64,000 nt of DNA from Candidatus Kaiserbacteria bacterium (GCA_028286585.1 JAQBRI010000009.1:28010-92009); one strand, 5' to 3'. Shown: positions 14,008 through 63,076, counted from the first letter of the stretch. Made by a program: numbers and translations. The notes: a model not told the origin generated them from the sequence alone.

Positions 14008-14817
14008 TTATTGCTCGAGAAGCGCCAGCCCTCCGTACAACCCCCCATCATCTTTGAGCTGTGAGTGTATGAGTCGCGGTATCGTTGGGAATTTATGCAT
14101 AAGTAGTTTTAAGTGTTCCGTTACACTCTCAACAGATATTCCAATTTCATTAAACATGGATCCACCCAAGACGATAGTGTCTGGAGACCACTCGAGTATC
14201 ATGTTGTGCACCCCAATCGCAGTAATGCGTGCAAGATCTTCCCATACTGGAGAATCTTTGCCCAGATCGCGCGGATGCATTCCATATTTTTTGTGAATAG
14301 CTGAGCCGGATACGAGTTCTTCAAATGTTTCAAGACTATCGCCATGCGAAAGATACTGACCGCCTATTTCAAATCCTTCAGTTGAGCGGTCGATATGTCC
14401 GTCAATAATTCGCACTCCATTTACTCCAGTCGAAATGGTAAGATACGCCATGATCGCACTTCCTACACCTGCTCCATATTTATTTTCACCAAGCCCAACC
14501 AGCGCCGTATCATTCTCAAGCGTGACCGTACACTCAAGCGCTTGCGCCAAATCATCTGCCAGCGGCTTACCGATCCATTCCATGAGATGCTCTGCTGTTG
14601 CAAGTGAGCGCTTATCATGAGAAAGCACACCAGGTACCCCCGCAACAAAGCGATCAATTGCTCCGCCTTCTGCAAGTTGTTTTGCCATTTGAACTATCAA
14701 TTCCAAACCCTGTTCATATTGCTGAGGTGTTTCAACATGCGTTGAACTGATCGATGTGTGCGCATTTGAAGCAACGCGCATTTTTGTTCCTCCAATATCA
14801 GCAAGGATTGCACGCAT
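14008..14817 (-). CDS. ROK-family sugar kinase (glucokinase-like)
   Basis: N-terminal 'ILADIGGTKMRVA' ATPase phosphate-1 motif and a Gly-rich 'GAGVGSAIM' block. Confidence 0.6.
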   Translation of the reverse strand: MRAILADIGGTKMRVASNAHTSISSTHVETPQQYEQGLELIVQMAKQLAEGGAIDRFVAGVPGVLSHDKRSLATAEHLMEWIGKPLADDLAQALECTVTLENDTALVGLGENKYGAGVGSAIMAYLTISTGVNGVRIIDGHIDRSTEGFEIGGQYLSHGDSLETFEELVSGSAIHKKYGMHPRDLGKDSPVWEDLARITAIGVHNMILEWSPDTIVLGGSMFNEIGISVESVTEHLKLLMHKFPTIPRLIHSQLKDDGGLYGGLALLEQ

Positions 14818-14818
14818 A

Positions 14819-15799
14819 TTATTCGGACATACGTTTTTTAAACTCAGCTATAAGCGGCGTTTGAGGGAATGGTACTCCATAGCCTGTCGCAAGCTCTCGC
14901 GCAACTGCATCCCCCAGTAATATCGTTTTAAACGCCTTACTAAAGCCGGTATCCGATAACTCTACCGTATACACCCCGATACCTTTTTCGATGAGCATCT
15001 GGCTTGCAACCTGCATACGCTTTTGTATGCGCGGATTGTCATTTGGGTCCGCAAAAATGACAACGCCCATGGAATCTGTGATTTTACTCGTACTTTCTGT
15101 AACATCAAATCCGGATAAATCATTGTGACAAAGCTCTGGGCAGACATCAATAAATGCCGGTACCTTTGTTGTTTCATTAAAATGTACTTTCCAAATATAA
15201 GAGAGCGGCGTGTTTACGTTCGAAGCCCAAATAAGTGGTATTTTGTTTTTGAGAAAAAGTGCAATCGTATTTACTGTGTCTTGATGAGGAAAAAGATCTT
15301 CACGTACACCGGCAAGCAAAATTTCTTGTTGCAATGCATCATCTTCTAGTATCAATGCCAACGCCCGCATTCCAAAACCAATCGCAAGACGAGGCTCAAG
15401 TCCGATTTCTGGAAGAATAACGAGCGGTATGTTATGAGTGCGAGCAAAATCAGCCAACTCGCCACCTGTCGTGATAGCGGCAAGCGAGCATCCGCGTACC
15501 AAGGCCTCAGCAGCTGCATCCAAAATTTCTTCGGTATTACCAGAATACGAACTCAAAATAACTAATGTATCCTTGGGATCATATATTCCTGAGTCATACA
15601 TATACACTGGGAGTCCATAATCACGATGAATGCTCAGTTCGGGTTGATTATCAAAATTTTTGACAAGCCATGCCGGCAAATGCGACCCTCCCATACCGCA
15701 AACAATTGTATGTGGTTTATGCTGCAAAAAATGGCTTCTTTCAACCTTTAACTCAGTTGTGAATTGAGATTGAAATTGTATGTGTAAATCTTCATGCAT
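14819..15799 (-). CDS. bifunctional phosphoglucose/phosphomannose isomerase (SIS domain, archaeal-type PGI/PMI)
   Basis: 'TIVCGMGGSHLPA' SIS signature. ~326 aa, typical of the PGI/PMI family. The stop is adjacent to the ROK kinase start. Confidence 0.6.
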   Translation of the reverse strand: MHEDLHIQFQSQFTTELKVERSHFLQHKPHTIVCGMGGSHLPAWLVKNFDNQPELSIHRDYGLPVYMYDSGIYDPKDTLVILSSYSGNTEEILDAAAEALVRGCSLAAITTGGELADFARTHNIPLVILPEIGLEPRLAIGFGMRALALILEDDALQQEILLAGVREDLFPHQDTVNTIALFLKNKIPLIWASNVNTPLSYIWKVHFNETTKVPAFIDVCPELCHNDLSGFDVTESTSKITDSMGVVIFADPNDNPRIQKRMQVASQMLIEKGIGVYTVELSDTGFSKAFKTILLGDAVARELATGYGVPFPQTPLIAEFKKRMSE

Positions 15800-15843
15800 T
15801 TAATAATTGTACCATATTTTAGTATTTCAAAAACAGCGCCGTA

Positions 15844-17802
15844 TTATTTTTTTAAGTGCAGCATGCATTCCAAATATGCTTGTACTGTAAGTACATATGC
15901 CGCATGTGTCCACGCGAGCGGCGTTGCTCCTACCTGTTCGCCAGTGTAGGGATTTAACTGTTCAGACAGCACTCCCGAAGGCTGCGCGTGCAATACAACC
16001 CAATCAAAAATATCAGTAGCCTTTTTCATGTCTGCAATATTTTCTGCACTACGAATGATATATTCTGCATACCACAAAGTGGTGAGTACCCATGGATTTC
16101 CTGGAGCTGTGCTATCGATACGAAAATATTCATCATTCTCAAATCGTGCAACGCCTCCTGCAAGAATATTTTTTGTAAGTATTTTGATAGAAGTATTCCA
16201 CGCTCGAATCATGCGATCATCATGTACATCAAGTACTTCAAATTTCATAAGTCCATACACGCTCGAAATATCAACGGTACGATCGTATTCCATTTTTTCA
16301 CCAGTGTGAGTAATCATATTTATGAACACACCCTTTTCCTCATCCCACAAGTGTTCAAGAATCGCCGCTCGTATTTCATGTGCGACCGTCAGATACTGTA
16401 CTTCCAAATCCGATTTACCCAATATTTTTGCCATTTCGCTTGCGGCAACGAGAGCGCCATACACACTTGCGCTCGTGTATGTACTAGTTCCTCGTTTGCG
16501 CTCCCATAAATCATATGAAGGAAATGGCAGGTGTGTTCTCCCATCACGATAATGGATCATAAATTCAGCGGGCTTTTTTACCAGCACATCAAACATTGCT
16601 TCCAAAAACTCCAAATCACGACTCTGTTGAAAGTGATTGTAGAGCGCGACGACAACAATCGCCGTTTCGTCCTCTTGTATCGGAAGCTGCGGATGTCCGT
16701 CTTTGATCCATGGGTGCCACGAAGAGCCAAACGATCCGTCTGCCCAAAACTTATGCAAAAAATATCCATCTGCCGATATTACGCGTGCACAAAATTTAAA
16801 GAATCGTTTTGCTGCACTGGTGTCACCTACAATATCCAGCATGGTTGCCGCATATGCTGCGTCACGCGGCCATACATATGCATATGTATCGTATCCCCAC
16901 TGCAGCATGTCGGAATCAAGCGAGGCGATGATTCCGCCCTGACCATCGAGATGGGCGCGAACATACATTAATGATTTGGTATAGAGTTGAGATTGTACAG
17001 AAGACAATTTTGAAAGATCGGTCGTGTATGTCTTGATCCATGCGCGCCAATATTCGCGCGTACTTAACACAATGTGTGAAGCAGTTTTTTGTCGCACACT
17101 ATGATCAAGCGCACGTGCCTCATGAATTGAGTGTGCTGCAAGAAGCCAGTAATGACATACTCGTGATTGCCCTACAGCATATTGACCATAAAATCCTATT
17201 ACAGAGTCCGCGGGTCCATGTTCAATAGCGTTTTGTGACAGCATGCCATCATCACAATCTCGGTGTGTACCTTCTTGATTGTTATATCCTGCGCGCCCTG
17301 TCGCATAATCCTGAAATTGTTCGCCGTCCAAATTACCTGACATTAAAAAAGCTCGTTTGTCTTTGTAGTGCACGATTGAATGCGATTCAGGATCAAAAAA
17401 GGCAGTATCTCCGCCATGAGCTTTGTATATTTCAAACTGCTGCCCAAAATACAATTTGATTTCGCGGATACGGTCTGCACCGTTCGTGACTCGTACGCGC
17501 CGTACAAACACCGGTTGTTCATTATAAATAATATCGGTAAATAATAGTTCTATTTGTAGGTTATTATTTCGGGCAATGATACTTGAAGCAAGTGCATTAT
17601 TTTCGCAGGTGACGACGACGCTCCAATCAGGGTCTGATATCCAACTCATCACTCCTTCAACCCATACACCAACGCGATGCAAATAATGTCCGCGTACATG
17701 ATCCTCTTGTCCCACATGCGGATAATAAATATCCCGCACCTGGCCGACACTATCAAGTGCGACGGCAAGTTCGCCATTGGAAAGTATCATAGAGCGAGAC
17801 AT
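15844..17802 (-). CDS. glycoside hydrolase family 15 (glucoamylase/glucodextranase-like)
   Basis: 'GYDTYAYVWPRDAAYAATML' (GH15 W-x-RD block), (alpha/alpha)6-type C-terminal half and an N-terminal beta domain. 652 aa. Confidence 0.7.
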   Translation of the reverse strand: MSRSMILSNGELAVALDSVGQVRDIYYPHVGQEDHVRGHYLHRVGVWVEGVMSWISDPDWSVVVTCENNALASSIIARNNNLQIELLFTDIIYNEQPVFVRRVRVTNGADRIREIKLYFGQQFEIYKAHGGDTAFFDPESHSIVHYKDKRAFLMSGNLDGEQFQDYATGRAGYNNQEGTHRDCDDGMLSQNAIEHGPADSVIGFYGQYAVGQSRVCHYWLLAAHSIHEARALDHSVRQKTASHIVLSTREYWRAWIKTYTTDLSKLSSVQSQLYTKSLMYVRAHLDGQGGIIASLDSDMLQWGYDTYAYVWPRDAAYAATMLDIVGDTSAAKRFFKFCARVISADGYFLHKFWADGSFGSSWHPWIKDGHPQLPIQEDETAIVVVALYNHFQQSRDLEFLEAMFDVLVKKPAEFMIHYRDGRTHLPFPSYDLWERKRGTSTYTSASVYGALVAASEMAKILGKSDLEVQYLTVAHEIRAAILEHLWDEEKGVFINMITHTGEKMEYDRTVDISSVYGLMKFEVLDVHDDRMIRAWNTSIKILTKNILAGGVARFENDEYFRIDSTAPGNPWVLTTLWYAEYIIRSAENIADMKKATDIFDWVVLHAQPSGVLSEQLNPYTGEQVGATPLAWTHAAYVLTVQAYLECMLHLKK

Positions 17803-17846
17803 AATATGATTATTGTAACATCATAAAATTACGATATAGTGTTCGT

Positions 17847-18335
17847 ATGAATACGCCTCCTTCGCATTACACAGATGATCATCGCATTACGAGCGAAGAC
17901 TTGTTTAACGCTAGCTCATACGAGGAATTAGCACAAATTGCACTGGGCGAACTCAAGTCTCTTGGAAATGCAGTCTCAATTGTCTGCGGACCAATAACGA
18001 CAGGCGGCCGCGGATCGATCAAGGACAACGTTGCGGTATTTGGAGCAACCATCAAAAAATTATCCGAAACGAATATATTGTTTAACCAGGTGCCCTACGA
18101 GGGCTCAATCGCACGCCTACGGCAAATATGGCACAACGAAGGCAACACCGGATACTGTATGCCAATACTTGATGTGTTTTATGCCCAACTCTTTGAGAGC
18201 GGCAATATTACCAAAGCATATTTTATTCCAGGCTGGGAATCATCATTTGGTGCACGTTGGGAACATAACGAAATGAAATTACATGGAGTAGAAATCGTGT
18301 ACCTTACCGACGAATGGATCGATAGTATTATATAA
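17847..18335 (+). CDS. hypothetical protein
   Basis: 162-aa ORF. No confident motif. Confidence 0.4.
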   Translation: MNTPPSHYTDDHRITSEDLFNASSYEELAQIALGELKSLGNAVSIVCGPITTGGRGSIKDNVAVFGATIKKLSETNILFNQVPYEGSIARLRQIWHNEGNTGYCMPILDVFYAQLFESGNITKAYFIPGWESSFGARWEHNEMKLHGVEIVYLTDEWIDSII

Positions 18336-18342
18336 AAACTAT

Positions 18343-19536
18343 TTATTTTGCCCGCTCAACACGAAGCCTGAGATCCGAGAGTGCATTCATGTACGCAATG
18401 TATGCGTCATATGGTGATTCATAGGGAGAAAAATATGCGTGCACATCGCCGTCATTCGCATATTTGGTACACATATAGTAAAAGTGATCCGACGTCTGCA
18501 TTCGGCGCCAATCTTCGAGGATGCGACCGTCGTTTGCCAAGAGTACACCATCTTCAAGTGCATACACCGCATCAATTGCCGCACGCTGTAGCGGATTTCC
18601 TGTCCACGCAGACAAATCGCGGTCGGTGTCTGCCCACGTCACGATGTCTGGCATATCGATTTCATCTTTTGTATCAAAACTGCGCGAAACTTCGGATGGA
18701 GTCATAAATGTAATTCCTGGATTTTTGGCAACCTCTTGCGGCAGTGCCTCCAAAAAGTGAAAGATGCCAGTGTCCTCCCACTGGTGCTCACCAAACGTCT
18801 CATAGTCCATAAACAAATTTACAGTGTCTCCCGGCGCTTCACCAAGCCAAGCACCAAATTTTTCACTCGTGAGCGGCCATTCAGCCCAGTCTTGTGATGA
18901 AAAACGAAATGCGACATCATCAGAAAGTTTATAATTTTTAAGCAGTAGCTTTATCCGATTTGCTCCGACCGGTTTATATACATAATTTGGACTGCGCCAT
19001 CCCAAAACTGGATCCCATCCTTCTGCAAGAATAGTTTCATACCCGTTCTTGTCGGCCCAATGTGCCAAATCATTGCGATATGACAGTTCAGTGTTACGAA
19101 ATGTTCGTGGCCATACGCCAAAAAGTCGGCGTACAAGCTCGCGGTGCTTTGCTACCTGACGCTCAAACTCGGGCTGTGAATAAAAGAAGGAGAGCGAATG
19201 GTAATATGTCTCGCCAAGTACTTCGACTTGTCCTGTATCAATGACGCGCTTAAACAAATCAAGCGCTTCAGGGACATATTGCTCCAGCTGCTCGAGCGCA
19301 ATGCCAGAAAAAGAAAATGACACGTGCATTTCCGGATGCCGCTGCAAGAGCTTGAGCAATAACGACGTCGCAGGAATGTATGATTTGCGGGCAACTTTTT
19401 CGACAATACGTCGATTGTTCAAATCGGTCTCACTTCGATCATTAAAATACTCAGTATCGTGCCCAATATCAAATACTCGGTACTTTTTTACACGATAGGG
19501 TTGGTGAACTTGAAAATAAAAACAAAGTGCCTTCAT
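18343..19536 (-). CDS. glycoside hydrolase family 57 protein (alpha-amylase/glucan-branching-like)
   Basis: N-terminal 'LCFYFQVHQPYR' is the GH57 hallmark block. 397 aa. Confidence 0.75.
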   Translation of the reverse strand: MKALCFYFQVHQPYRVKKYRVFDIGHDTEYFNDRSETDLNNRRIVEKVARKSYIPATSLLLKLLQRHPEMHVSFSFSGIALEQLEQYVPEALDLFKRVIDTGQVEVLGETYYHSLSFFYSQPEFERQVAKHRELVRRLFGVWPRTFRNTELSYRNDLAHWADKNGYETILAEGWDPVLGWRSPNYVYKPVGANRIKLLLKNYKLSDDVAFRFSSQDWAEWPLTSEKFGAWLGEAPGDTVNLFMDYETFGEHQWEDTGIFHFLEALPQEVAKNPGITFMTPSEVSRSFDTKDEIDMPDIVTWADTDRDLSAWTGNPLQRAAIDAVYALEDGVLLANDGRILEDWRRMQTSDHFYYMCTKYANDGDVHAYFSPYESPYDAYIAYMNALSDLRLRVERAK

Positions 19537-19542
19537 GTCCGC

Positions 19543-20841
19543 TTATTGTACACCACTCTCACTTACTTCACGTATGATTCTATCCACATTTTGTGCCGCA
19601 CGATCCCATGTAATGCTTAATGCTTCGTTTTGTGCATAATCACTCAGCGTAGCGTGGAGCATCGGGTGCTCAATTACTGCCAAAATCTTGTTTGCCATCT
19701 CATCCGTGTCCCAAAAGTCTACTTTAAGTGCATGAAAGACGACTTCCGAGACGCCAGACTGCTTGGAAATAAGAACAGGGGTCCCCAATCGCATTGCCTC
19801 AAGCGGAGTGATTCCAAATGGCTCGGAAACAGATGGCATAACAAATAAATCGGCGACAGCGTATGCCATAGTCCGATCATCCCCTTGCAAAAAACCTGTA
19901 AACAGAACATTTTGCCCAATACCGAGCGCCGCAGACATTTCCATAACAGACCGATCCATATCACCCGAGCCAGAAATAACAAAAATAACCTTTTTGTTTT
20001 GCTGCAGTACTCGGGCAGCAGCCTTAAGAAAGTAGTCTGGGCCTTTTTGAAGCGTAATGCGTCCCAAAAACAGCACGATCGAATAGCCCGACGCCTTGAG
20101 TGCGCGCAAGCTTGCAATACCAGGTAGTGCCTTTGGCATTGTTGTTTCGTCGATTCCGTTATGTACAACCACTATTTTGTTTGGATCGATTCCGTAGTAT
20201 TTGACGATAATATCTTTGGTCAGTTGTGATACCGCTATTACCCTATCTGCTGTTTGCATACCGAGTTTCTCAAGTTCAAATACAACCGGGTTAACACCAT
20301 CAATACCACCACACCTGTCTACTTCTGTTGCATGCACGTGCGCAATGAGTGGACGCCCGGTAATACGTTTTGCCTCGATTCCTGCACCAAACGAAAGCCA
20401 ATCATGTGCATATATGACATCACATTCCTCAGATTTTGCGATTTCTCCCGCCTGCAATGAATAGCGCAATACTTGTCCCAACAAATCCTCACCATAGATA
20501 TTTGCATCAACGACAGTGCCGTTACTCAATGTTACCTTCCCCGATCGCGAGGTGTACGGAGTAATGGTCGAAGATATACCGATAGTCCTGATACTTTTGC
20601 CGCTTATTTCTTCTACTGAGTATTCGACACTGTCGGCAAAAAGTATTTTTGCAAAAGCAGATTCAACAGGCAGTTTTTTTGGCATGACAAACGTAACATC
20701 CATTCCTCGCGATGTAAGAGCCCGAGTCAGTCCCAAGCATGCGACGCCTAATCCTCCGCTATTAAACGGAGGAAATTCCCAGCCAAACATTAGTATGCGC
20801 ATAGTAGTAGTGATAGGTAATCCCCAACCCGATTTTACCAT
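19543..20841 (-). CDS. glycosyltransferase family 4 (glycogen synthase-like, archaeal type)
   Basis: 'MRILMFGWEFPPFNSGGLGVACLGL' N-terminus and a GT-B C-terminal 'EPFGITPLEAM' nucleotide-sugar block. Confidence 0.75.
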   Translation of the reverse strand: MVKSGWGLPITTTMRILMFGWEFPPFNSGGLGVACLGLTRALTSRGMDVTFVMPKKLPVESAFAKILFADSVEYSVEEISGKSIRTIGISSTITPYTSRSGKVTLSNGTVVDANIYGEDLLGQVLRYSLQAGEIAKSEECDVIYAHDWLSFGAGIEAKRITGRPLIAHVHATEVDRCGGIDGVNPVVFELEKLGMQTADRVIAVSQLTKDIIVKYYGIDPNKIVVVHNGIDETTMPKALPGIASLRALKASGYSIVLFLGRITLQKGPDYFLKAAARVLQQNKKVIFVISGSGDMDRSVMEMSAALGIGQNVLFTGFLQGDDRTMAYAVADLFVMPSVSEPFGITPLEAMRLGTPVLISKQSGVSEVVFHALKVDFWDTDEMANKILAVIEHPMLHATLSDYAQNEALSITWDRAAQNVDRIIREVSESGVQ

Positions 20842-20888: not shown

Positions 20889-21389
20889 TTATCGAGTGAC
20901 GCAAATCGGCGTCGGACTAGCCGAAACAGCAGTCTCACTCGCCGCTCCAGGCGCACAAACAGTAACTCGACCATTTGTGTCTACAGAAACCGTATAGCCC
21001 GTGCTTGGTGTAGTAGGCGCCGACGGATCGACTGGCAGCGTTGGAATGTATGTTGGTACCAAACAGTTGGTAGCAAGATCGGTATGTCCTGAAACTGTTG
21101 TTCCACCCGCATCTATGACAGATGCTGTGGCTCCAAGCGCTGGACATCCTCCAGTTGAAGCAAAAATACCTTTATTATCTGCTATTCGCTGCCCAATCGC
21201 GTTCAAAATTGCATTTACACTACTGGTTCTGTCTGTATTACGAGCCTGTGCAAATTGTCGCGCCGGATTAATCGCAATAATTACTATTGTTGCCAATATC
21301 GCAATGATGCCAATAACAACTAAAATTTCTATTAAAGTAAAACCACTCTGCGCTTGCGCGCTTTTAAACCGTTTTGTAACGGACCCCAT
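20889..21389 (-). CDS. type IV pilin (prepilin-type N-terminal cleavage/methylation domain), candidate major pilin
   Basis: 'KRFKSAQAQSGFTLIEILVVIGIIAILATIVIIAI' carries the G|FTLIE class III signal. Confidence 0.85.
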   Translation of the reverse strand: MGSVTKRFKSAQAQSGFTLIEILVVIGIIAILATIVIIAINPARQFAQARNTDRTSSVNAILNAIGQRIADNKGIFASTGGCPALGATASVIDAGGTTVSGHTDLATNCLVPTYIPTLPVDPSAPTTPSTGYTVSVDTNGRVTVCAPGAASETAVSASPTPICVTR

Positions 21390-21526
21390 ATTTTTATATC
21401 GTTACTAATAATATCTATAGTGTAGCAGTCGCTTCAAAATATTTGTGAGGTGACTTACACATGTGTTAATAACTTATAAACAAAAGCCCACTAGAGCGAG
21501 CTTTCGCCATAGTGGGTAAATCAAAT

Positions 21527-22015
21527 CTATAAAATGTGAGTCCATAATTCCTCGGATTCGTCGTTACTTACAACACGCTTGAGCAGCGTCGGTTTTTTAC
21601 CGTCGAGACATGCACGAAACACATCATCTCCCGATTTGAACCGTATCTCGGCCGGATCCAAATTAACCTTCTCGACATAGTGCAAACTGAGGCAAATTTT
21701 CCTTCCATCATCGACCGCAAGCACAACGCCCGTACCGTTGGCCTCGACTGAAACTTTAAATCGAGTGGCGACGTACGAAAGCAGCGCAAAACCCATCGAG
21801 TAATCATTCGTTTTTCGCAAACCCAGAATCGTCATTCCCATGTTTGCAATCGTGCGCGATGGAAAGTCGGTCAGCGGACAAAAAGGAGCGACTTCATCCT
21901 TTTCGATAACAGCCTGATCAACTATTCTGCATACGTACACGCCGCCACTATAGTACGTATAATTGGTGCAATCCTTGCATGCAGATACAAGTCCGACAAT
22001 CTTTGGCGTCGACAT
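21527..22015 (-). CDS. hypothetical Cys-containing protein inside the pilus operon
   Basis: 162-aa ORF with 'CKDCTNYTYYSGGVYVC' and 'CPLTDF'. No family recognised. Confidence 0.4.
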   Translation of the reverse strand: MSTPKIVGLVSACKDCTNYTYYSGGVYVCRIVDQAVIEKDEVAPFCPLTDFPSRTIANMGMTILGLRKTNDYSMGFALLSYVATRFKVSVEANGTGVVLAVDDGRKICLSLHYVEKVNLDPAEIRFKSGDDVFRACLDGKKPTLLKRVVSNDESEELWTHIL

Positions 22016-22126
22016 AATGGTATCTCTCTGTTGGCCCTACCAGACACGAATGTGGGCTAGTAACACATGTCCTACCGAGACAGTACACAACCAGTACCAA
22101 ATAGTCAACGATTATATGTCTTTGGT

Positions 22127-22525
22127 TTAAAATGCCGCAGTGTTCAGAATTTGCATATGCAGGGTAAGCGTCACGTAAGATTTTCTATGACTAATTGCAT
22201 TTCCCTCTTTTGCCATAGTGATAATAATAATCTTGTTACCCTCGTGAACAATTGAAACGATGGTACAGGCGTGATTACTGTTTAGAATTACATTTTGATT
22301 ATGTACTGTATATGTTGATGGGTCTGCTGCTGTTGCGATGATTCTTAGTGCAATATCTATGCATCCTTGTGATTCCATTTGTGCATCACGATACTGTTCA
22401 CTTGTCAGTACATCGGCCCTGGCAAACCAGCCTGAAAATCCCACGGTAACCATAAGCGTAAGCAATATCGCACTGATAATTAGAACTGATATGAGTGCAA
22501 TAAAACCTCTATTTTCTTTTTTCAT
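22127..22525 (-). CDS. pilin-like protein with a degenerate prepilin signal
   Basis: 'NRGFIALISVLIISAILLTL' has the G-F plus hydrophobic helix of a pilin but lacks Glu at +5. Confidence 0.5.
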   Translation of the reverse strand: MKKENRGFIALISVLIISAILLTLMVTVGFSGWFARADVLTSEQYRDAQMESQGCIDIALRIIATAADPSTYTVHNQNVILNSNHACTIVSIVHEGNKIIIITMAKEGNAISHRKSYVTLTLHMQILNTAAF

Positions 22526-22526
22526 A

Positions 22527-23009
22527 TTATTGATTCAATATGGAATGAAGATAAAATAATCGAGATACCATATGTCCATCACTAGTGGTCGCACTGGCGA
22601 CAAACTCTCCATCGAGGACGTCGAACGATTCATCTGAATTTGAAATTTTTGCATGCGTAAATGTAAGATCTTGCACAGAGATAGTGTCTGCATTAAGAAT
22701 GTGTGGATCATTACCGCCATCGATGATCAGATTTCCACCGGTACTATATATATTTGTTTCCGTTCCGGCGTCATCAACAACATTCAATGAAGCGCCCTGT
22801 GTCTGGGGAGCCGAAATAATTGATGATGATTGTACGATATAGGTTATTTTTGAAACAATAAAATCGCCTTCTTCCACTAAAAGAGCGATACTCTGATTGC
22901 GTACTTGTGATTCAAATAGTGAATAGAGCGCAACAATTACACCTCCCATAAGTATCGAATAAAGTGCTAAATACATAACAACTTCTATCAAGGTAAATCC
23001 CCGCCTCAT
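22527..23009 (-). CDS. minor pilin (prepilin-type N-terminal domain)
   Basis: 'MRRGFTLIEVVMYLALYSIL'. Confidence 0.8.
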   Translation of the reverse strand: MRRGFTLIEVVMYLALYSILMGGVIVALYSLFESQVRNQSIALLVEEGDFIVSKITYIVQSSSIISAPQTQGASLNVVDDAGTETNIYSTGGNLIIDGGNDPHILNADTISVQDLTFTHAKISNSDESFDVLDGEFVASATTSDGHMVSRLFYLHSILNQ

Positions 23010-24526
23010 AATCCGGCATGTATATCGCTGATAAATCCCCCACTTGCACTCGATCCGACATAGAGCGTGTTTTGTTCACAATCAATAGCGCGACCGTTTC
23101 CAGGTAAAGCGATGGTAGCAACACGATGTGGAGCGATTTGTAGTAAATCACTATCCACTTGTAACGATTGTCCCGTAGTGGTAAGTAAAAAAGCGTATTG
23201 TGGACGAACGATCATACCGATAATACTGCTGCTTGCTGTGGCAGTTGATATAACCATTGGCGTGCTGCGATCAATGGTGTTAAGAGTGTACAAATCCGGT
23301 GCTCCTGCAGCAAAAGTGAGTCCAAGGTATGTGGTAGTTCCAATTACGTTCACGCTGCTGCCGTTTCCCCAACCCTTGTTGTCATACACATTGTACTGAC
23401 TCACAAGCGTAGGATTAGTTGGATCATTAACATCAAGAATCAACAATTCGTGCGTCGAACTGTCTGTTGCTATATAGGCATAGCCGCGGCGTACATCAAT
23501 GTCACTTACTCCGGCACCGACAACATATCCACCCACCCATCTTGGATGCAGCGGATCGTGCACGTCTATAATATTAAACTCGGGACCGCCTGCAGATTTT
23601 GTAAGACCGAGATACACATAGCCACCAATCAAAATAATAGTTTTTCCAACTGCCTGGCCGCCGCTACCGTTGAGAAATGGAGTGCTACTGGTAGGTATTG
23701 TGAAATTGGCTACCACTGTAGGATTTACGGGATTTGTAATTGCTAGTACCTGCAACTGGGCGCAGCTGGCTGACGTATGACATGTTTTAAAGTTTGCCGC
23801 GTGACCATTCGCTGCAAACACATACGAACCATTTGAGGCGATATTTTCGAGTCCATCAATACTGGAAGAATTTGTGTCAATTCCGCCTTTGTAAATCCAA
23901 TTATTTGGATCTTGCACGTCAACGACAAAGAATGAATCGTTAAGCTTGTTGCTAGTCGTTCCTACCGCGATAGACATGATGCCTCGATAGACATCCACAC
24001 TGGTTACTGGATTCGATGTTGAATACGTATGTCCCGCCGGTTGCGTTGGGGGCAGCAGGTCACCAATACTTATTTTATGATTATTAATGCTTGCATGTGC
24101 CCAGTTTCCGCCAAGCGCTCCACAAGTATCATATGACAGAGCATTCATGTAGTCGGTAAGGGCAGATACCATGGTAACTGTCTGCAAAGCCCCACCACGA
24201 TCACTCCACGACACCTTTGTGGTCGCCAAGCGCACTGCGTATGGATCATACGATGAATCTCCAATTGTAAGAGTAGAGGTAAATACTCCATCGGAGGATG
24301 TTGCGAGATTAGCAAGAGATCTTTCATCTGCATGCGCAGCAACTTGTGCATTTTCAAGCATTGTTTCAGCGTGCACAATAGCTTGGTTGTGCATAGTACC
24401 TGATAACAGTATCGATTGTCCTTCGTACGATATCAAAGCCATTGAACCTACCGTGCATGAAATTATTGCAAGCGCTATGACTATCTCGATTGTGGAAAAT
24501 GCCCTCGAATAGACTAGCGACTCCAT
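23006..24526 (-). CDS. large pilin-like protein with LVIVD-repeat beta-propeller domain (candidate pilus tip adhesin)
   Basis: N-terminal 'RAFSTIEIVIALAII' (class III-like signal, E at +5). The C-terminal half has repeated 'Y.YLG...EF.IIDVHDP..P' and 'YAYIATD..ELLILDVNDPTNP' blocks typical of LVIVD repeats. 506 aa. Overlaps its neighbours by 4 and 13 nt. Confidence 0.65.
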   Translation of the reverse strand: MESLVYSRAFSTIEIVIALAIISCTVGSMALISYEGQSILLSGTMHNQAIVHAETMLENAQVAAHADERSLANLATSSDGVFTSTLTIGDSSYDPYAVRLATTKVSWSDRGGALQTVTMVSALTDYMNALSYDTCGALGGNWAHASINNHKISIGDLLPPTQPAGHTYSTSNPVTSVDVYRGIMSIAVGTTSNKLNDSFFVVDVQDPNNWIYKGGIDTNSSSIDGLENIASNGSYVFAANGHAANFKTCHTSASCAQLQVLAITNPVNPTVVANFTIPTSSTPFLNGSGGQAVGKTIILIGGYVYLGLTKSAGGPEFNIIDVHDPLHPRWVGGYVVGAGVSDIDVRRGYAYIATDSSTHELLILDVNDPTNPTLVSQYNVYDNKGWGNGSSVNVIGTTTYLGLTFAAGAPDLYTLNTIDRSTPMVISTATASSSIIGMIVRPQYAFLLTTTGQSLQVDSDLLQIAPHRVATIALPGNGRAIDCEQNTLYVGSSASGGFISDIHAGL

Positions 24527-24966
24527 AGTATTCGTCCAATGCTGCTAATTGTAATAGTAGCTGTCTTTCCAAATGAATCAGTAAGTAAAAAATTGCCCGA
24601 TGTTGCGACTGATCCGGAAAGAGAGGCGAATACCACTTCTGACAAACCTGTATATGTGGTGTGTTCACTCTTTTCAAAAGAAACCGAATATGATCCATCA
24701 CTATCTGCATATGAATTACCTTGAAAAACTACAATTTGATTTTGTGTGACGGCTACGCCATGAGCAGGAGAAATGTCGCAAGCACCGCTACAGACTCCCT
24801 GCATTGAAAGAGCACGCGCATGTTCGAAAAGAGTCACAAGCCTTTCCCTATCAGAGCGCAATTCTACACTTCGATATTCTCCAATGGAGGCTGCTATTGT
24901 TAGCCCGCCAATGATGAGTAACAAGGCTATTACAATAATAATTTCAATGATAGAAAAACCCCGCAT
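24514..24966 (-). CDS. minor pilin (prepilin-type N-terminal domain)
   Basis: 'MRGFSIIEIIIVIALLLIIGGL'. Confidence 0.8.
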   Translation of the reverse strand: MRGFSIIEIIIVIALLLIIGGLTIAASIGEYRSVELRSDRERLVTLFEHARALSMQGVCSGACDISPAHGVAVTQNQIVVFQGNSYADSDGSYSVSFEKSEHTTYTGLSEVVFASLSGSVATSGNFLLTDSFGKTATITISSIGRILWSR

Positions 24967-24967
24967 A

Positions 24968-26035
24968 TTAATGATTGCTAATGCTTTGTGTCAGCTGATA
25001 AATGGGAGTAATTATCGAAAGTGCAATAAACTCGACAATACTTCCCATCACAAGCATGAGGAGCGGCTCGATAAGCGTAGTAAGATTTTTGGTCATCTCT
25101 TTTACTTCTTGTTCATAATTTTCTGATATGTAACCAAAACTTTCTTGGAGTCGCCCTGTCATTTCACCAGAATGGATAATATGTACAAACATTGATGGGA
25201 ACAACCGAGGATGATGCGAAAGAGCATCTGCAACAGTGCTGCCCTCTTCTACACCAACTGCGATGAATGAAATAACATGCCTATACTGTGCAGATCCTGT
25301 CGTCGTACTAATAAGTTTTAAAACAGCTGCAGCTTGTATGCCGCTTAATAATAATGCACTGCCAGTGCGCGCAATTAGAGATAATTCGTAGCTTTGTAAT
25401 AGACCACCAATTATTGGTACGCGAAAAAGTATCCGTTCAAACAAATGTCTAAAAAATGGGACTCTTATGCACATTCCAAATACAACTAAACAGACAACTG
25501 CACCAAAAATTGCAATGTACCAATCGTGGATCAAAAAATCTGATACTCCTATTAAAATGCGGGTGGAAAGCGGCAATACGGTGTGAACACTTTTAAATAT
25601 CGGTGTAAGTTTTGGGAAAAGATAGACTGCCAAAAATAGGGATATGCACATCGTTGCGAGAATAATGATGATTGGATAGATAAGTGCGGCAATTACAGTA
25701 TTACGTAATTCTGCACGTTTTTTAAGCTCATCGGACACATATATAAGCGACTGATGCAGCGAACCTGACTCCTCTCCTATCTTCACCAGATTGATCGTCA
25801 GTGGAATAAATACTTTTGGAAACTTTTGCAAAGCCTGGGAAAATCGTATGCCATGCTGCACTTCGTGGAGGAGTGTTGTAATAATATATTTTGTATTTTT
25901 TGAGCTCTCCGAAAAACCTATCATCTTTAAAACTTCTCCTAATGGAATTCCAGCACGTAACATCATTGCAATACGTTTAAAAAGTACAACTTGCTGCTTG
26001 TTAGACAAACGCAGCATGTATGGCTTATCATTCAT
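24968..26035 (-). CDS. pilC: type IV pilus assembly platform protein PilC (GspF family)
   Basis: Two T2SSF-like repeats with three TM segments. 'FPKLTPIFKS' and 'LSGIQAAAVLKLIS'. Overlaps pilB by 8 nt. Confidence 0.8.
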   Translation of the reverse strand: MNDKPYMLRLSNKQQVVLFKRIAMMLRAGIPLGEVLKMIGFSESSKNTKYIITTLLHEVQHGIRFSQALQKFPKVFIPLTINLVKIGEESGSLHQSLIYVSDELKKRAELRNTVIAALIYPIIIILATMCISLFLAVYLFPKLTPIFKSVHTVLPLSTRILIGVSDFLIHDWYIAIFGAVVCLVVFGMCIRVPFFRHLFERILFRVPIIGGLLQSYELSLIARTGSALLLSGIQAAAVLKLISTTTGSAQYRHVISFIAVGVEEGSTVADALSHHPRLFPSMFVHIIHSGEMTGRLQESFGYISENYEQEVKEMTKNLTTLIEPLLMLVMGSIVEFIALSIITPIYQLTQSISNH

Positions 26036-27359
26036 GCGTAAGTCGAAGCGTTTCTTCGAGCGTGGTAATTCCCTGTCGTGCTTTGAGGAGTGCGTCAGTA
26101 ATCATAATTTCCATTCCTTGCTTACATGCTTGGATACGTATTTCATCAGCGCTCGCGCGCATAACAATGCGCTCCCGAATTACTTCATCGATCTGCAATA
26201 ATTCATATACGCCAATGCGCCCTCTGTATCCAGTTCCAATACATTCTCCACAGCCACGTCCCCGATAAAACTGGGGATTGGTGTGCAATAACGAAAGTGG
26301 AGTAAGTTTTGAGACTTGTAATAATTCTGAATCCGTCAATGCTATTTTTTCACGGCAACCAATACAAATTTTTCGTACCAGTCGCTGTCCTATGACGAGG
26401 GTAACTGTAGACGCAATCAAATATGGCTCTACGTCCATATCAAGAAGACGCACGATGGTTGCCGCCGCATCGTTCGTATGAATACTCGACAAGACAAGGT
26501 GCCCAGTGAGCGCAGTATTTACAGCAAGCCGTGCGGTCTCTGTATCACGCACTTCTCCAACCATTACAATATCCGGATCTTGCCGCACGACTGCACGGAG
26601 TCCAGTTCCAAAAGTGAAGCCAATGGCGGGATTTACTTGGATTTGCCGAACTCCATGTATTGAATATTCTATCGGATCTTCAAGTGTAATAATTGATACA
26701 TCAGGCGTATTCAGTTGTGAAATCAAGGTGTACAACGTTGTCGTTTTGCCCGAACCTGTAGGACCTGTCGCAAGTATCATGCCATGTGTACGAGCGAGTG
26801 CGCGCTGTATTATTTGCTGCTGCAGATTACTAAAACCCAATTCGGGAAGACCATTAGCATTATTCATATTAGTGAGTAATCGCAATACAGCATTTTCGCC
26901 ACAATAGGTGGGTGTAATCGATACTCGCACGTCTACAATTATCGGTAGGGTTGTAGATTGTTTTATGTGAATAATTTCAGAGCGAAATCGCCCATCATGC
27001 GGCATGTAATGCTCATCGATGCGCAAACCTGCCATAACCTTTATGCGCGATATCACTTCGGAGTGTAATCCGATTGGTATGGTGTAGACATCTTGCAGTA
27101 TTCCATCGATACGCATGCGCACCATGACTATTCCATCACGCGGATCAATATGTACGTCGGACACCTTTGCAAAATATCCGTGAGATATCAATGCATCAAT
27201 AATTTTGATTGCTGAATTACCTATAATTTTTGTTATGTCCACGGGTCCGCTCTCTCGCGTAGGAATTTGCGTCGTATCAAAACAAAAAACACCCTCGGTA
27301 GGTGTTTCAGACGTGCTTTTTGCACGCGTAACAAACGCATGGAGACCCCGAATATCCAT
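26028..27359 (-). CDS. pilB: type IV pilus assembly ATPase PilB (GspE family)
   Basis: Walker A 'ATGPTGSGKTTTLYT', 'RQDPDIVMVGEVRD' Asp box and C-terminal tetracysteine 'CIGCREKI...CGECIGTG'. Confidence 0.9.
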   Translation of the reverse strand: MDIRGLHAFVTRAKSTSETPTEGVFCFDTTQIPTRESGPVDITKIIGNSAIKIIDALISHGYFAKVSDVHIDPRDGIVMVRMRIDGILQDVYTIPIGLHSEVISRIKVMAGLRIDEHYMPHDGRFRSEIIHIKQSTTLPIIVDVRVSITPTYCGENAVLRLLTNMNNANGLPELGFSNLQQQIIQRALARTHGMILATGPTGSGKTTTLYTLISQLNTPDVSIITLEDPIEYSIHGVRQIQVNPAIGFTFGTGLRAVVRQDPDIVMVGEVRDTETARLAVNTALTGHLVLSSIHTNDAAATIVRLLDMDVEPYLIASTVTLVIGQRLVRKICIGCREKIALTDSELLQVSKLTPLSLLHTNPQFYRGRGCGECIGTGYRGRIGVYELLQIDEVIRERIVMRASADEIRIQACKQGMEIMITDALLKARQGITTLEETLRLTHE

Positions 27360-38992: not shown

Positions 38993-41900
38993 TTATTTCT
39001 TCCAATGATACAGCAATATTGAGAAGTCGACTGAATCTACCTTTCCGTCGTGATTGAGGTCGACTTTATTATTTTTAAAAGGTGGCTTCGTCTTCCAATA
39101 TGCGAGAAGTATTGAGAAATCGATTCCATTCACTTTTCCATCTCCGTTGATATCGCCAATCACTTCAGTTGTAGCTGCTGGGGTAGCCACAGGTGGAGAA
39201 TTATCTCCTCCGCCTCCCCCACCTCCTCCACCTCCGCCACCGCCACCTCCATTACCTGGGTTTTGTACGGGAGCAGCAATTGCAGTAAATGACTGACTTG
39301 CACTTGATGATGCTGATCCATATTGTACTGCTACATGGAACCAATACGTTCCAATAACGGGAACAGTTGAAGAAAGTGTTGTATCAAAGTTCGCACCAGG
39401 CTGAATCAGTTTTGCTGCAGTTGAACTAAAAATATCATCACCACCTCCACAAGAATTGGTTGCAGAGTCGGTAACACACCACGTGTATTGATATTCGTAT
39501 GCTATAGAACCTTCGTTTGTTATACGCACTGCTGTGGCAATGCTTGGTACCGTCAATCCACTAAAACTCTGGATCAGAACTTGTGCTGGCGCTCCCGGTG
39601 TTGCACTCACAGGAATTGTTGTCGTGCCTCGTCCAACAAGATTTTTTGCTGATATACGGAAATCATATGAATTATTGTTGGATAGACTAGTTACCATGGT
39701 TGTTGGTGTCGTACTAATACCGTCAGAAAATATAGACCATGTTCCGCCCGAAGAAAGTTTGTATTCAACTACGTAATCAGTCACAGGTGAACCACCGTTT
39801 GATATTGGCGCCGACCATGAAAGGTTGATACTGCTGTCTTGTACAATTGCGGCGAGGTTTATTGGGGCACCGGGCACACTTGCTGGCGTCGCAGCATTAC
39901 TTGTACCGGAGCTGGTACTCGTGCCAACTGCGTTTGTTGCAGTGACAGTAAATGTGTATGTTGTTCCGTTTGTGAGGCCTTGTATAGTAGCTGAAGTTCC
40001 ATTTGTTGTAGTACTAAATACTCCACCATTTGAAGTGACGGTATAGCTTGTTATAGGAGATCCTCCATTAAAACCGGGCGCAGACCACGTAAGATTTACA
40101 CTACTGTCTGCAATTGCTGCAGCAAGATTTGTTGGCGCGTCAGGAACTGTAGCTGGGGTGACCGAATTCGTTGCGGCTGATGAAATACTTGTTCCAATTG
40201 CGTTGGTTGCCGTCACTGTAAACGTGTAGGCTGTTCCGTTTGTTAAACCAGTTACCGTTATTGGTGAACTTCCGCCAGTTGCGGTGAAGTTGCCGATATT
40301 TGAAGTAACGGTATAAGACGTAATTGCAGAGCCACCGGTAAATGATGGTGGGCTAAATGTAATAGTCGCAGTACCGTCACCGCCAACTGCCGCTACGCTC
40401 GTTGGTGCACTTGGCCCACCTGCAGGTACAACCGAATTACTTGTTCCAGAACTAGTACTTGTTCCAACATTGTTTGTTGCAGTTACTGTAAAGGTGTACG
40501 TTGTTCCATTCACGAGTCCAGTAATAGTGATCGGTGAACTTCCACCTGTTGCAGTAAATCCTCCTGTATTTGATGACACGGTGTAGTTAGTTATTGCAGC
40601 ACCGCCGTTACTAACGGGCGGTGTAAAGGAAACAGTTGCTTGGCCGTTTCCAGCAACTGCAGAAATCGAAGTGGGTGCATCAGGTACTGTGGCAGGAGTA
40701 ACGGAGTTACTTGTACCCGATGAAGTACTCGTTCCAATACTATTTGTTGCAGTGACAGTAAATGTGTATGTCGTGCCATTTGTGAGACCAGTAATTGTAA
40801 TTGGTGAAGAGCCACCTGTTGCCGTAAATCCTCCTGTATTTGATGACACGGTATAGTTTGTTATTGCAGCGCCGCCGTTACTTACAGGCGGAGTAAATGT
40901 AATTGTTGCTTGGCCGTTACCACCAACGGCAGAAATACCAGTCGGAGAATTAGGAACAGTTCCTGGTATTACTGAATTACTTGCGGATGATGCGGTACTT
41001 GTTCCTGCAGCATTCGTAGCAGTGACTGTAAATGTGTACGTAGTTCCGTTGGTAAGACCGGTCACAGTGATCGGAGAAGAACCACCTGTTGCGGTAAGGC
41101 CGCCACTACTTGATGTGACAGTGTAACTCGTAACGGCAGCTCCTCCATTATTTACTGGTGGAGTAAATGTAATTGTTGCCTGACCATTACCGCTAACTGC
41201 GGTCACGCTTGTCGGCGCGTTTGGCGTCGTCGCGGGAACAACGGTGTTACTTGTGCCCGATGGCGTACTGGTTCCAACTGCATTTGTGGCAGTCACAGTA
41301 AATGTGTAGGTTGTTCCATTTGTAAGACCGGTAATTGTAATTGGTGAAGATCCGCCGCTCGCGGTGAAGCCGCCGGTGTTTGATGACACGGTGTAGTTAG
41401 TTATTGCAGAACCGTTGTTACTTCCCGGTGTAAAGGAAACCGTAGCTTGACCATTACCGCTTACTGCCGTGACAGCAGTAGGTGCATTAGGAACAGTAAC
41501 AGGAGTAACTGAGTTACTTGCGGACGACGCAGTACTGGTTCCAACATTGTTTGATGCTGTTACGGTAAATGTGTAGGTTGTACCGTTAGTAAGGCCAGTA
41601 ATTGTAATTGGGGAGCCGCCGCCTGTTGCAGTAAAGCCGCCGGTGTTTGATGACACGGTGTAGTTAGTTATTGCAGATCCCCCGTTACTGACTGGCGGAG
41701 TAAATGTGATTGTTGCTTGGCCGTTTCCAGCAACTGCAGAAACGCTTGTTGGGGCACCCGGTGCAGTCGCAGGTGTCACAGAATTGCTTAGTGTCGAGGA
41801 GGTACTTGTGCCAACGCCATTAGTTGCAGTAACGGTAAATGTGTATGCGGTGCCATTGGTAAGACCGGTCACAGTGATTGGTGAGCCACTTCCGCTTGCT

Positions 41901-62635: not shown

Positions 62636-62637
62636 AT

Positions 62638-63003
62638 CTACAACTGTGTATACTTTGTGTGCCGCCCTTTGGCCTTTGCTACCGGGTATTTCTCACCATT
62701 TTTCTTCATCTTTTTTTCAAGTGCATCAGAAATATCAATTTTAAGATCATTACACATTAGCAGTACCCAATAGAATACATCGGCTAACTCTTCGGCAACA
62801 TCTTCTTTATTTGTCTTTATGTGTGCCTCCATTTCTTCTTTATTTTTCCATTGAAAATGTTCCATGACTTCGGCAGCCTCTAAAACCAAGGAAATGGCTG
62901 TGTCTTTTGGGTTATGAAATTGTTTCCAATCACGAGCGTCACGAAATGAGACCACGAGCTTTTTGAGCTCCGCAAGGCTCTTTTGGGTCTTTTTTGTCGT
63001 CAT
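62638..63003 (-). CDS. MazG-like nucleotide pyrophosphohydrolase (all-alpha NTP-PPase)
   Basis: 'ISLVLEAAEVMEHFQWKN' and 'EELADVFYWVLLMCNDLKIDISDALEKKMKKN', the EExxE and ELAD motifs of the MazG fold. Its stop is 3 nt from the upstream gene. Confidence 0.7.
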   Translation of the reverse strand: MTTKKTQKSLAELKKLVVSFRDARDWKQFHNPKDTAISLVLEAAEVMEHFQWKNKEEMEAHIKTNKEDVAEELADVFYWVLLMCNDLKIDISDALEKKMKKNGEKYPVAKAKGRHTKYTQL

Positions 63004-63076
63004 AGATAGTCAAATAATACTCTTTTTATGAGATAAAGCTAAAGTGTATTCATAATGATGACTGACCCTATTTCTC

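Follow-up and report, generated by a model that had tools for sequence, protein, structure and literature searches.

A putative minimal type IV filament cassette with a propeller-bearing minor pilin in Candidatus Kaiserbacteria and other Patescibacteria

Modular pilins, in which a small pilin module is combined with a bulky C-terminal module, have been catalogued in large numbers (1219 proteins; Raynaud et al. 2021, PMC8179133). Dataset S1 of this catalogue contains about 30 modular pilins with architectures joining N_methyl (IPR012902) to the LVIVD repeat (IPR013211), which is called a 'motif of unknown function' and for which the text gives an example from Falkowbacteria (PMC8179133). A minor pilin with a C-terminal seven-bladed propeller, PilX2 of the type IV pilus T4P-2, has been studied in TM7x (Nanosynbacter lyticus, Saccharibacteria), where it has been proposed to be a tip adhesin and where its deletion roughly halves host binding while the pili are retained (PMC11623550). 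In Pseudomonas aeruginosa, the propeller protein PilY1 also has a vWA module (PMC8179133). The Com pilus is built from five pilins, an ATPase, a platform protein and a peptidase, and needs neither PilMNO(P) nor PilT; the core minor pilins form a tip complex, which is capped by a subunit without Glu5 and at which assembly starts (PMC10191384). Here, the motifs, folds and synteny of a 64,000-nucleotide stretch of DNA from Candidatus Kaiserbacteria (Patescibacteria, candidate phyla radiation (CPR)), in the following called the window, have been analysed computationally. We regard it as likely, with moderate confidence for the reading as a whole, that positions 20889-27359 comprise a compact type IV filament cassette that is conserved and minimal, and that its 506-aa modular minor pilin shows a β-propeller at the filament tip as a binding module.

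Gene content and conservation of the cassette

The region contains eight open reading frames (ORFs), all on the minus strand and all at the coordinates given in an initial annotation of this DNA, which had also proposed five pilin-like genes among them; five prepilin-like N-termini are indeed present. The encoded proteins are a PilB/GspE-type ATPase, a PilC/GspF-type platform protein, four minor pilins, a protein with four conserved cysteines, and the major pilin. The features are, in the order of transcription:

26028..27359, minus strand: extension ATPase (PilB/GspE-type), 443 aa; PF00437 T2SSE, E-value (E) 4e-112
24968..26035, minus strand: platform protein (PilC/GspF-type), 355 aa; PF00482 T2SSF in two stretches, E 3e-46
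24514..24966, minus strand: minor pilin 1, 150 aa, MRG|FSIIE, in a GspH/FimU-like slot; TIGR02532 exactly at cut-off
23006..24526, minus strand: modular minor pilin, 506 aa, SRA|FSTIE; PF08309 LVIVD, 37 bits
24122-24526, minus strand: leader and pilin module of the 506-aa protein, residues 1-135
23009-24121, minus strand: predicted seven-bladed LVIVD β-propeller of the 506-aa protein, residues ~136-506
22527..23009, minus strand: minor pilin 3, 160 aa, MRRG|FTLIE; PF07963, 23.4 bits
22127..22525, minus strand: minor pilin 4, 132 aa, NRG|FIALIS, without Glu5, candidate cap in a GspK/PilX-like slot
21527..22015, minus strand: four-cysteine ORF, 162 aa, probably an insertion and not a part of the pilus
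21477..21516, minus strand: terminator-like hairpin with a U-rich tract, downstream of the four-cysteine ORF and upstream of the major pilin gene
20889..21389, minus strand: major pilin, 166 aa, with a 16-aa leader, QSG|FTLIEILVVIGIIAILA; PF07963, 30.9 bits

Related loci were collected by contig look-ups for four homologs and by a scan of one genome per species, together resulting in 49 loci, of which 45 are distinct. The scan was seeded with a 15-sequence alignment; an alignment of 61 sequences was too divergent as seed. The 43 loci from the genome scan carry labels of Patescibacteria almost exclusively (Kaiser-, Doudna-, Adler- and Lloydbacteria, Paceibacterota, Minisyncoccia, and Saccharibacteria). 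Of the 45 distinct loci, about 40 have the same arrangement, in which the genes for ATPase, platform protein, minor pilin 1, LVIVD pilin, minor pilin 3, minor pilin 4, and major pilin follow each other in this order on one strand. The gene of the LVIVD pilin has a fixed place as the second of the four minor-pilin genes. A single locus is rearranged and has the LVIVD pilin gene after the major pilin gene (L043:2058-8437), and most of the remaining departures are loci at contig ends. When all flanking ORFs were clustered, the seven pilus families alone recurred. Because the gene order is conserved across dozens of genomes, the cassette is not a chance arrangement.

Neither a prepilin peptidase (Peptidase_A24, PilD) nor a second T2SSE protein (PilT) nor PilM/N/O were found among the window ORFs of at least 110 aa, as the initial annotation had noted, and none of them is encoded beside any of the related loci (about 7-10 kb on each side). 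Of the two explanations offered for this, genes lying elsewhere or a minimal system, the latter is favoured because the seven genes recur without PilD, PilT, and PilM/N/O in about 45 loci; they also match the parts list of the Com pilus.

Starting from the ATPase gene, the junctions are an 8-nt overlap (ATPase and platform genes), a 1-nt spacer, a 13-nt overlap, a 4-nt overlap (genes of the 506-aa protein and of minor pilin 3), and another 1-nt spacer. The first six genes are thus tightly coupled. The translational coupling proposed for the operon on the basis of 4-13 nt overlaps is limited to these six, as the four-cysteine ORF is flanked by gaps of 111 and 137 nt, the latter in front of the major pilin gene. 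The hairpin in the 137-nt gap has a predicted RNA folding energy of -19 kcal/mol (z -3.4), which was equalled by none of 200 shuffled sequences; its long loop caused a simple terminator scan to overlook it. The major pilin gene may have a transcript of its own. A promoter scan did not yield more sites than found in shuffled sequence.

The ATPase scores similarly against the GspE (TIGR02533, 456 bits) and PilB models (TIGR02538, 438 bits), in both cases under the equivalog cut-off. It contains the Walker A motif GPTGSGKT at residue 199 and has retained the tetracysteine motif (C332/C335/C370/C373). Its alignment begins at position 109 of the GspE and position 182 of the PilB model, and the N-terminal domain of about 130-180 aa that is present in PilB and GspE is missing. 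In known systems this domain contacts a partner of the PilM/GspL type. The loss of the domain would therefore fit a system without such a partner. The platform protein matches GspF (TIGR02120) with 272 bits, which is also under the cut-off.

The modular minor pilin and its propeller

The 506-aa protein is identical (100%) to the hypothetical protein JWO50_713 of a Candidatus Kaiserbacteria metagenome-assembled genome at NCBI. Its homologs form 74 clusters, which are mostly about 500 aa long and match over the full length. The protein starts with MESLVYSRA|FSTIEIVIALAIISCTVGSMAL, while the consensus of the family is G|FSTLE. At position -1 the family has glycine in 49 sequences, alanine in seven, and nothing else; Phe is found at +1 in 51 of 56 and Glu at +5 in all 57 sequences. 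As judged from these residues, the N-termini of the family appear compatible with processing by a prepilin peptidase, and the incompatibility that would have spoken against the prepilin-like N-terminus (A-F-S-T-I-E) of the initial annotation is not seen. The alanine of the window protein is apparently tolerated because it recurs in both close and distant relatives. In a Pseudomonas pilin, alanine at -1 is reportedly still cleavable. All elements of a class III signal, which are Gly or Ala at -1, Phe or Met at +1, Glu at +5 and about 20 hydrophobic residues, are found in the 506-aa protein.

The search with the N_methyl hidden Markov models (HMMs; PF07963 and TIGR02532), which had been suggested as a check, was successful only in part. 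The 166-aa and 160-aa pilins score above the cut-off and the 150-aa pilin reaches it, but the 506-aa and 132-aa proteins are matched by neither model, and only four of 61 homologs of the 506-aa protein have N_methyl matches (E up to 0.01). In addition, the 506-aa protein has a PilV-like match of 13 bits (cut-off 52), and some of its relatives are named 'PilV' at JGI.

These N-termini bear on whether the 506-aa protein is part of the filament. It could also be anchored in the membrane by an uncleaved N-terminal helix and be merely co-expressed with the pilins, which would be consistent with the Ala at -1 and the missing N_methyl Pfam match in the window protein. The TM7x proteins PilX1 and PilX2 likewise have no predicted PilD signals (PMC11623550). 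However, the conservation of Phe1 and Glu5 together with the restriction of position -1 to Gly or Ala can hardly be accounted for unless the protein is processed and packed into the filament, and the gene is translationally coupled within the block of minor-pilin genes. A location outside the filament is therefore extremely unlikely.

Some LVIVD pilins are longer and contain extra sequence (660-830 aa; L045:7001-9010, L046:5966-7957, L048:284-2326, L049:4232-6247; proteins P0025 and P0033). One of these long variants of the same LVIVD pilin, P0025, has a Pfam match to an I-set immunoglobulin-like domain.

The C-terminal part of the 506-aa protein matches the LVIVD model (PF08309) with 37 bits (gathering cut-off 20.2). 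One repeat is above the Pfam threshold, and by inspection five LVIVD-like blade-end motifs can be found at residues 199, 258, 317, 361, and 412. LVIVD is also matched by 58 of the 61 aligned homologs. An AlphaFold2 (AF2) model computed from the family alignment, with a predicted local distance difference test (pLDDT) score of 91.5 and a predicted template modelling (pTM) score of 0.87, comprises a helix (residues 3-66), a four-stranded antiparallel sheet (74-124), and seven four-stranded blades (about 141 to 505). Helix and sheet together correspond to a predicted pilin fold with a block-averaged pLDDT of about 75-95. The C-terminal domain is thus, as modelled, a seven-bladed LVIVD β-propeller, and the absence of such a domain, which would have contradicted the initial annotation, did not turn out to be the case. 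Two cysteine pairs of the protein behave as is typical of disulfide pairs, because they co-occur: Cys135 and Cys483 are found together in 58 of the 61 homologs, while Cys249 and Cys255 are both present in 47 and both absent in 13 others.

In a Foldseek search against the PDB the propeller resembles generic seven-bladed propellers, namely the phosphotriesterase Sb-PTE (5hrm), the WD40 domain of beta-TrCP, YncE, and lactonase-like proteins; there were no PilY1 chains among the best 50 matches. A weak match to the 'choice-of-anchor B' domain of surface proteins would fit a module displayed at the surface. The similarity to 5hrm raises the question whether the propeller might be a hydrolase that is carried on the pilus, and not an adhesin. 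This protein is the top solved match by fold (Foldseek E 5e-11) and the only solved sequence found by the family profile, if weakly (E 0.0045), lactonase-like propellers are among the other matches, and peptidase modules on pilins have been catalogued (PMC8179133). On the other hand, the identity to 5hrm is only about 12% and the sequence match spans only about 68 residues, and WD40 and other non-catalytic propellers score equally. In addition, the invariant and near-invariant positions of the family do not include a histidine and include few acidic residues, and a conserved binuclear-metal site is therefore not evident. Thus, an enzymatic function is very unlikely, and a binding module remains the preferred reading of the propeller.

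The other pilins and the possible function of the propeller

The four other pilins all have Gly at -1 and Phe at +1. Minor pilin 1 (family consensus G|FTLIE in 39 sequences) matches GspH (TIGR01708) with its N-terminal part only (E 3e-6, 27 bits, cut-off 80). The consensus of minor pilin 3 is G|FTLIExLIYLAL (44 sequences). Minor pilin 4 has a weak match to GspK (NF037980; E 0.0019, 18 bits, cut-off 130) and the consensus G|F(I/V)AL(I/M)S with two invariant cysteines, and Glu5 is absent throughout the alignment of 24 sequences. The major pilin has a GspG-like N-terminus (TIGR02532, E 1.5e-7), four cysteines, and the family consensus G|FTLIEILVVIGIIA. The content of Gly, Ala, Ser and Thr (GAST) is 39-44% over three of the pilins, with 39% in minor pilin 1 and 44% in the major pilin. 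Searches for equivalogs of GspH, GspI, GspJ, and GspK resulted in scores far under the cut-offs, and PDB profile searches with minor pilins 1 and 3 and with the pilin module gave generic pilin N-termini, so that an H/I/J/K identity is not established for the four minor pilins.

Compared to the nearest locus, L001 (major pilin gene at L001:13123-13623), the major pilin is the best-conserved gene of the cassette with 95% identity, the other six pilus genes having 62-88%. Major pilins are often the fastest-evolving pilus components in pathogens.

Minor pilin 4 is enlarged to 650-1020 aa in seven of the related cassettes:

L012:9002-11506, enlarged minor pilin 4
L013:9006-10979, enlarged minor pilin 4
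L021:5488-7740, enlarged minor pilin 4
L023:7037-10105, enlarged minor pilin 4
L041:9132-12131, enlarged minor pilin 4
L045:9548-12316, enlarged minor pilin 4
L048:2865-4898, enlarged minor pilin 4

Five of these seven proteins match vWA, with Pfam scores of only about 20-33 bits as the basis of the assignment; four exceed the gathering score of 23.8 bits and one does not reach it. Three of the five also match a SpaA-like prealbumin-fold domain. A simple motif search did not find the canonical DxSxS motif of the metal ion-dependent adhesion site (MIDAS) in the vWA-like regions. Across the family, propeller and vWA modules are therefore located on two different tip pilins, which echoes the two modules of PilY1.

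The four minor pilins are placed at the tip because their genes are contiguous, the last one encodes a protein without Glu5, and the first, second, and fourth have weak matches to GspH, PilV, and GspK, respectively. The following mechanism could be envisaged. A prepilin peptidase encoded elsewhere would process the five pilins. The four minor pilins would then assemble on the platform into a priming complex, which would be capped by the subunit without Glu5 and would finally reach the pilus tip. The 506-aa protein would be anchored in the filament by its prepilin-type signal and its small pilin module, leaving the acidic propeller exposed at the tip, where it would bind a ligand. Most likely, this would be a glycan or a protein of a host cell or another surface, and its binding would lead to attachment. 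The machinery would be similar to a Com-type minimal filament with ATPase and platform only. The propeller is probably displayed at the tip as a ligand-binding adhesin. A function in binding is favoured by the adhesion-type modules (vWA, SpaA-like) on the enlarged Glu5-less pilins of related cassettes, by the contribution of PilX2 to host binding in TM7x (PMC11623550), and by the weak 'choice-of-anchor B' match of the propeller.

It is also conceivable, although unlikely, that the propeller mainly controls assembly or retraction, be it as a bulky plug that keeps the priming complex stable, as an anti-slip stop in the cell wall, or as a sensor of surface contact. Some of the functions that have been assigned to PilY1 are of this kind. 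As part of the core block of minor pilins, the propeller pilin is present invariantly in about 45 loci, which suggests a structural or assembly role unlike that of variable accessory adhesins. The third blade is the best-conserved one (mean column identity of 0.68 versus 0.43-0.55 in the others) and could be an interface between subunits. In addition, no retraction ATPase is encoded near the cassette, in the window or in the flanks of the related loci. However, TM7x still forms pili without its propeller pilin PilX2 but does not bind its host normally, an exposed propeller of 370 aa would be costly for a purely steric role, and neighbouring tip pilins of relatives carry modules of the adhesion type.

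Another function that has to be considered is DNA uptake. The cassette would then be a competence pilus of the Com type with a tip, including the propeller, that captures extracellular DNA, which we regard as quite unlikely. Its parts list is identical to that of the Com pilus, the ComGA and ComGB models align with the ATPase and the platform protein along almost their entire length, and the Foldseek matches include YncE of Escherichia coli, a seven-bladed propeller that binds single-stranded DNA. The minor-pilin tip complex of Com pili binds DNA (PMC12153270). However, the scores for ComGA (228 bits, equivalog cut-off 300), ComGB (132 bits, cut-off 240), and ComGC (23 bits, cut-off 75) are all under the cut-offs, and the ATPase and the platform have considerably higher scores for GspE/PilB and GspF. 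The order of the genes is unlike that of comG, in which the major pilin gene is the third and comes right after the ATPase and platform genes. Competence genes were not found in the window. The charge of the proteins also speaks against a DNA receptor: each of the 61 homologs has an acidic propeller (isoelectric point (pI) 4.1-6.3, median charge -10.5), and the five mature pilins of the window range from neutral to strongly acidic. Finally, T4P-2 of TM7x does not contribute to competence (PMC11623550).

Some points weigh against the proposal of a minimal filament with an adhesive propeller at its tip. The 506-aa protein of the window has Ala instead of Gly at -1, and it is not matched by the N_methyl model of Pfam, which covers 27 positions and has low sensitivity. 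The nearest solved relative of the propeller by both sequence and fold, Sb-PTE, is an enzyme. The assignment of the H/I/J/K slots relied on the order of the genes, on the lack of Glu5 in the fourth minor pilin, and on HMM matches that are weak. The absence of PilD, PilT, and PilMNO refers to the window and to about 7-10 kb of flanking sequence at the related loci.

The initial annotation had described the 506-aa protein as a tip adhesin analogous to PilY1 but on a pilin itself. The fusion of a propeller to a pilin stands, and the role at the tip is inferred as described above. The protein is not a member of the PilY1 family: it is itself a pilin, and a PilY1-type domain (IPR008707) was not detected in it, LVIVD being its only Pfam match at E up to 1.

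A more far-reaching reading, which we offer tentatively and consider rather unlikely, would be a self-sufficient, Com-like filament that is specific to Patescibacteria, in genomes that do not encode PilMNO or PilT at all. The modules of PilY1 would have moved to the core minor pilins, the propeller in all cases and a vWA-like module in some lineages, and the propeller would be the determinant by which the episymbionts among the Kaiserbacteria and Paceibacteria recognise their hosts. We know of no attachment factor for these episymbionts. To our knowledge, most lineages of the Patescibacteria outside the Saccharibacteria do not have cultured representatives. A conserved cassette with a propeller that is predicted to be surface-displayed provides a concrete and clonable candidate for host binding, namely residues 136-506. 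The cassette could also serve as a compact model of a minimal type IV filament needing the ATPase and the platform alone. The gain is incremental, as both the grafting of modules onto pilins and a propeller pilin for host binding in the CPR have already been published.

Neighbouring genes and comparison with known systems

The position of the Cys-containing ORF (21527..22015) between the major pilin and the minor pilins is as initially described, but it does not seem to be a component of the pilus. Within the cassette it is found in only two related loci (L001 and L002, the closest relatives, with 56% identity). An exhaustive search revealed a family of 113 clusters of about 160-aa proteins, 62 of them at E up to 1e-10, while a word-indexed search had found just two. 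The family has four conserved cysteines (C13, C16, C29, C46) within SCxxCPN...SGG..C...APFCPLxDYPS. The ORF has no match in Pfam or NCBIfam, and the family has no relative in Pfam or the PDB. Its GAST content of 26.5% resembles that of cytoplasmic proteins, and an AF2 model from two sequences has a pLDDT of 36. Members of the family are located in three other contigs amid unrelated genes, in one case beside an integrase, with no pilus genes near:

L050:7101-7586, four-cysteine family member
L051:6001-6507, four-cysteine family member
L052:6001-6495, four-cysteine family member

A role as pilus accessory protein was rejected because these contexts do not contain pilus genes. From its sequence relatives, the ORF is probably an unrelated gene that has been inserted into the operon in this lineage. 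The family, which is unannotated and present in variable genomic contexts, may be a new family of small metal-binding proteins.

Directly downstream of the cassette (14008-20841, minus strand) the window encodes proteins of glycogen/starch metabolism: GT4/GT5 glycogen-synthase-like, GH57, GH15, and PGI-like proteins and a ROK kinase. These genes are syntenic in those relatives from the Kaiserbacteria (flanks of L001 and L003) whose LVIVD pilin is at least 44% identical, and not farther. At 38993-56818 (minus strand) a single ORF of 5941 aa is found, which carries a dockerin and 21 fibronectin type III domains in its C-terminal half and whose N-terminal half does not have any Pfam match. At about 46-54 kb, within this ORF, the GC content is 0.55-0.58 compared to a background of about 0.44, and the GC skew is about -0.3. 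It probably represents a giant protein at the surface of the CPR cell. Positions 60629-63985 (minus strand) encode a 668-aa fusion of a Schlafen-group-3-like helicase and a Peptidase S24 (LexA-like) domain near a fragment of an AbiEii-like nucleotidyltransferase, and may represent a defence or stress-response gene cluster.

In the described systems, the Com pilus (type IVd pilus, T4dP; comG of monoderms) is similar to the cassette in having one major and four minor pilins, an ATPase and a platform protein, in the absence of PilMNO(P), a secretin and PilT, and in a short ATPase without the long N-terminal domain. The prepilin peptidase gene comC is usually located outside the comG operon. Likewise, the window cassette does not have a prepilin peptidase gene nearby. 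It differs from the Com pilus by the last position of the major pilin gene, by a propeller of 370 aa on one of the minor pilins, and by its acidic pilins. With GspH-I-J-K and PilH-I-J-K it shares four contiguous minor-pilin genes with the last one lacking the codon for Glu5, and weak matches to GspH, PilV, and GspK for the first, second, and fourth, respectively. Type IVa systems have PilM/N/O, PilT, and PilD, which were not found in the 64-kb window or the flanks of the related loci. The PilY1/PilC proteins of type IVa pili are similar in combining a β-propeller at the tip with four core minor pilins. However, PilY1 is a non-pilin that docks onto the minor pilins, whereas the 506-aa protein is itself equipped with a pilin module and a class III signal.

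By its composition the 506-aa protein is a modular pilin as defined by Raynaud et al. 2021. It is similar to the Streptococcus sanguinis modular pilins PilB (vWA) and PilC (lectin) in its small pilin module and in a bulky C-terminal module that is not pilus-specific and for which exposure at the tip is predicted. The likeness to PilX2 of TM7x is at the level of the architecture, as PilX2 contains RCC1 repeats instead of LVIVD and has no predicted PilD signal. In addition, T4P-2 of TM7x has PilM2, PilN2, and PilO2 and is split over separate loci, unlike the window cassette. Full-text literature searches did not reveal a discussion of LVIVD pilins beyond the catalogue of Raynaud et al. 2021, which lists LVIVD without structure, operon context, or function, whereas here a complete seven-bladed propeller is predicted within a conserved cassette. 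The locus is thus less novel than the initial annotation had implied, because the architecture has already been catalogued (PMC8179133) and a propeller pilin of analogous function is known from work on TM7x (PMC11623550). What the comparison adds is the fixed cassette of seven genes across many Patescibacteria, the location of the propeller on the second core minor pilin, and the optional vWA-like modules on the cap pilin.

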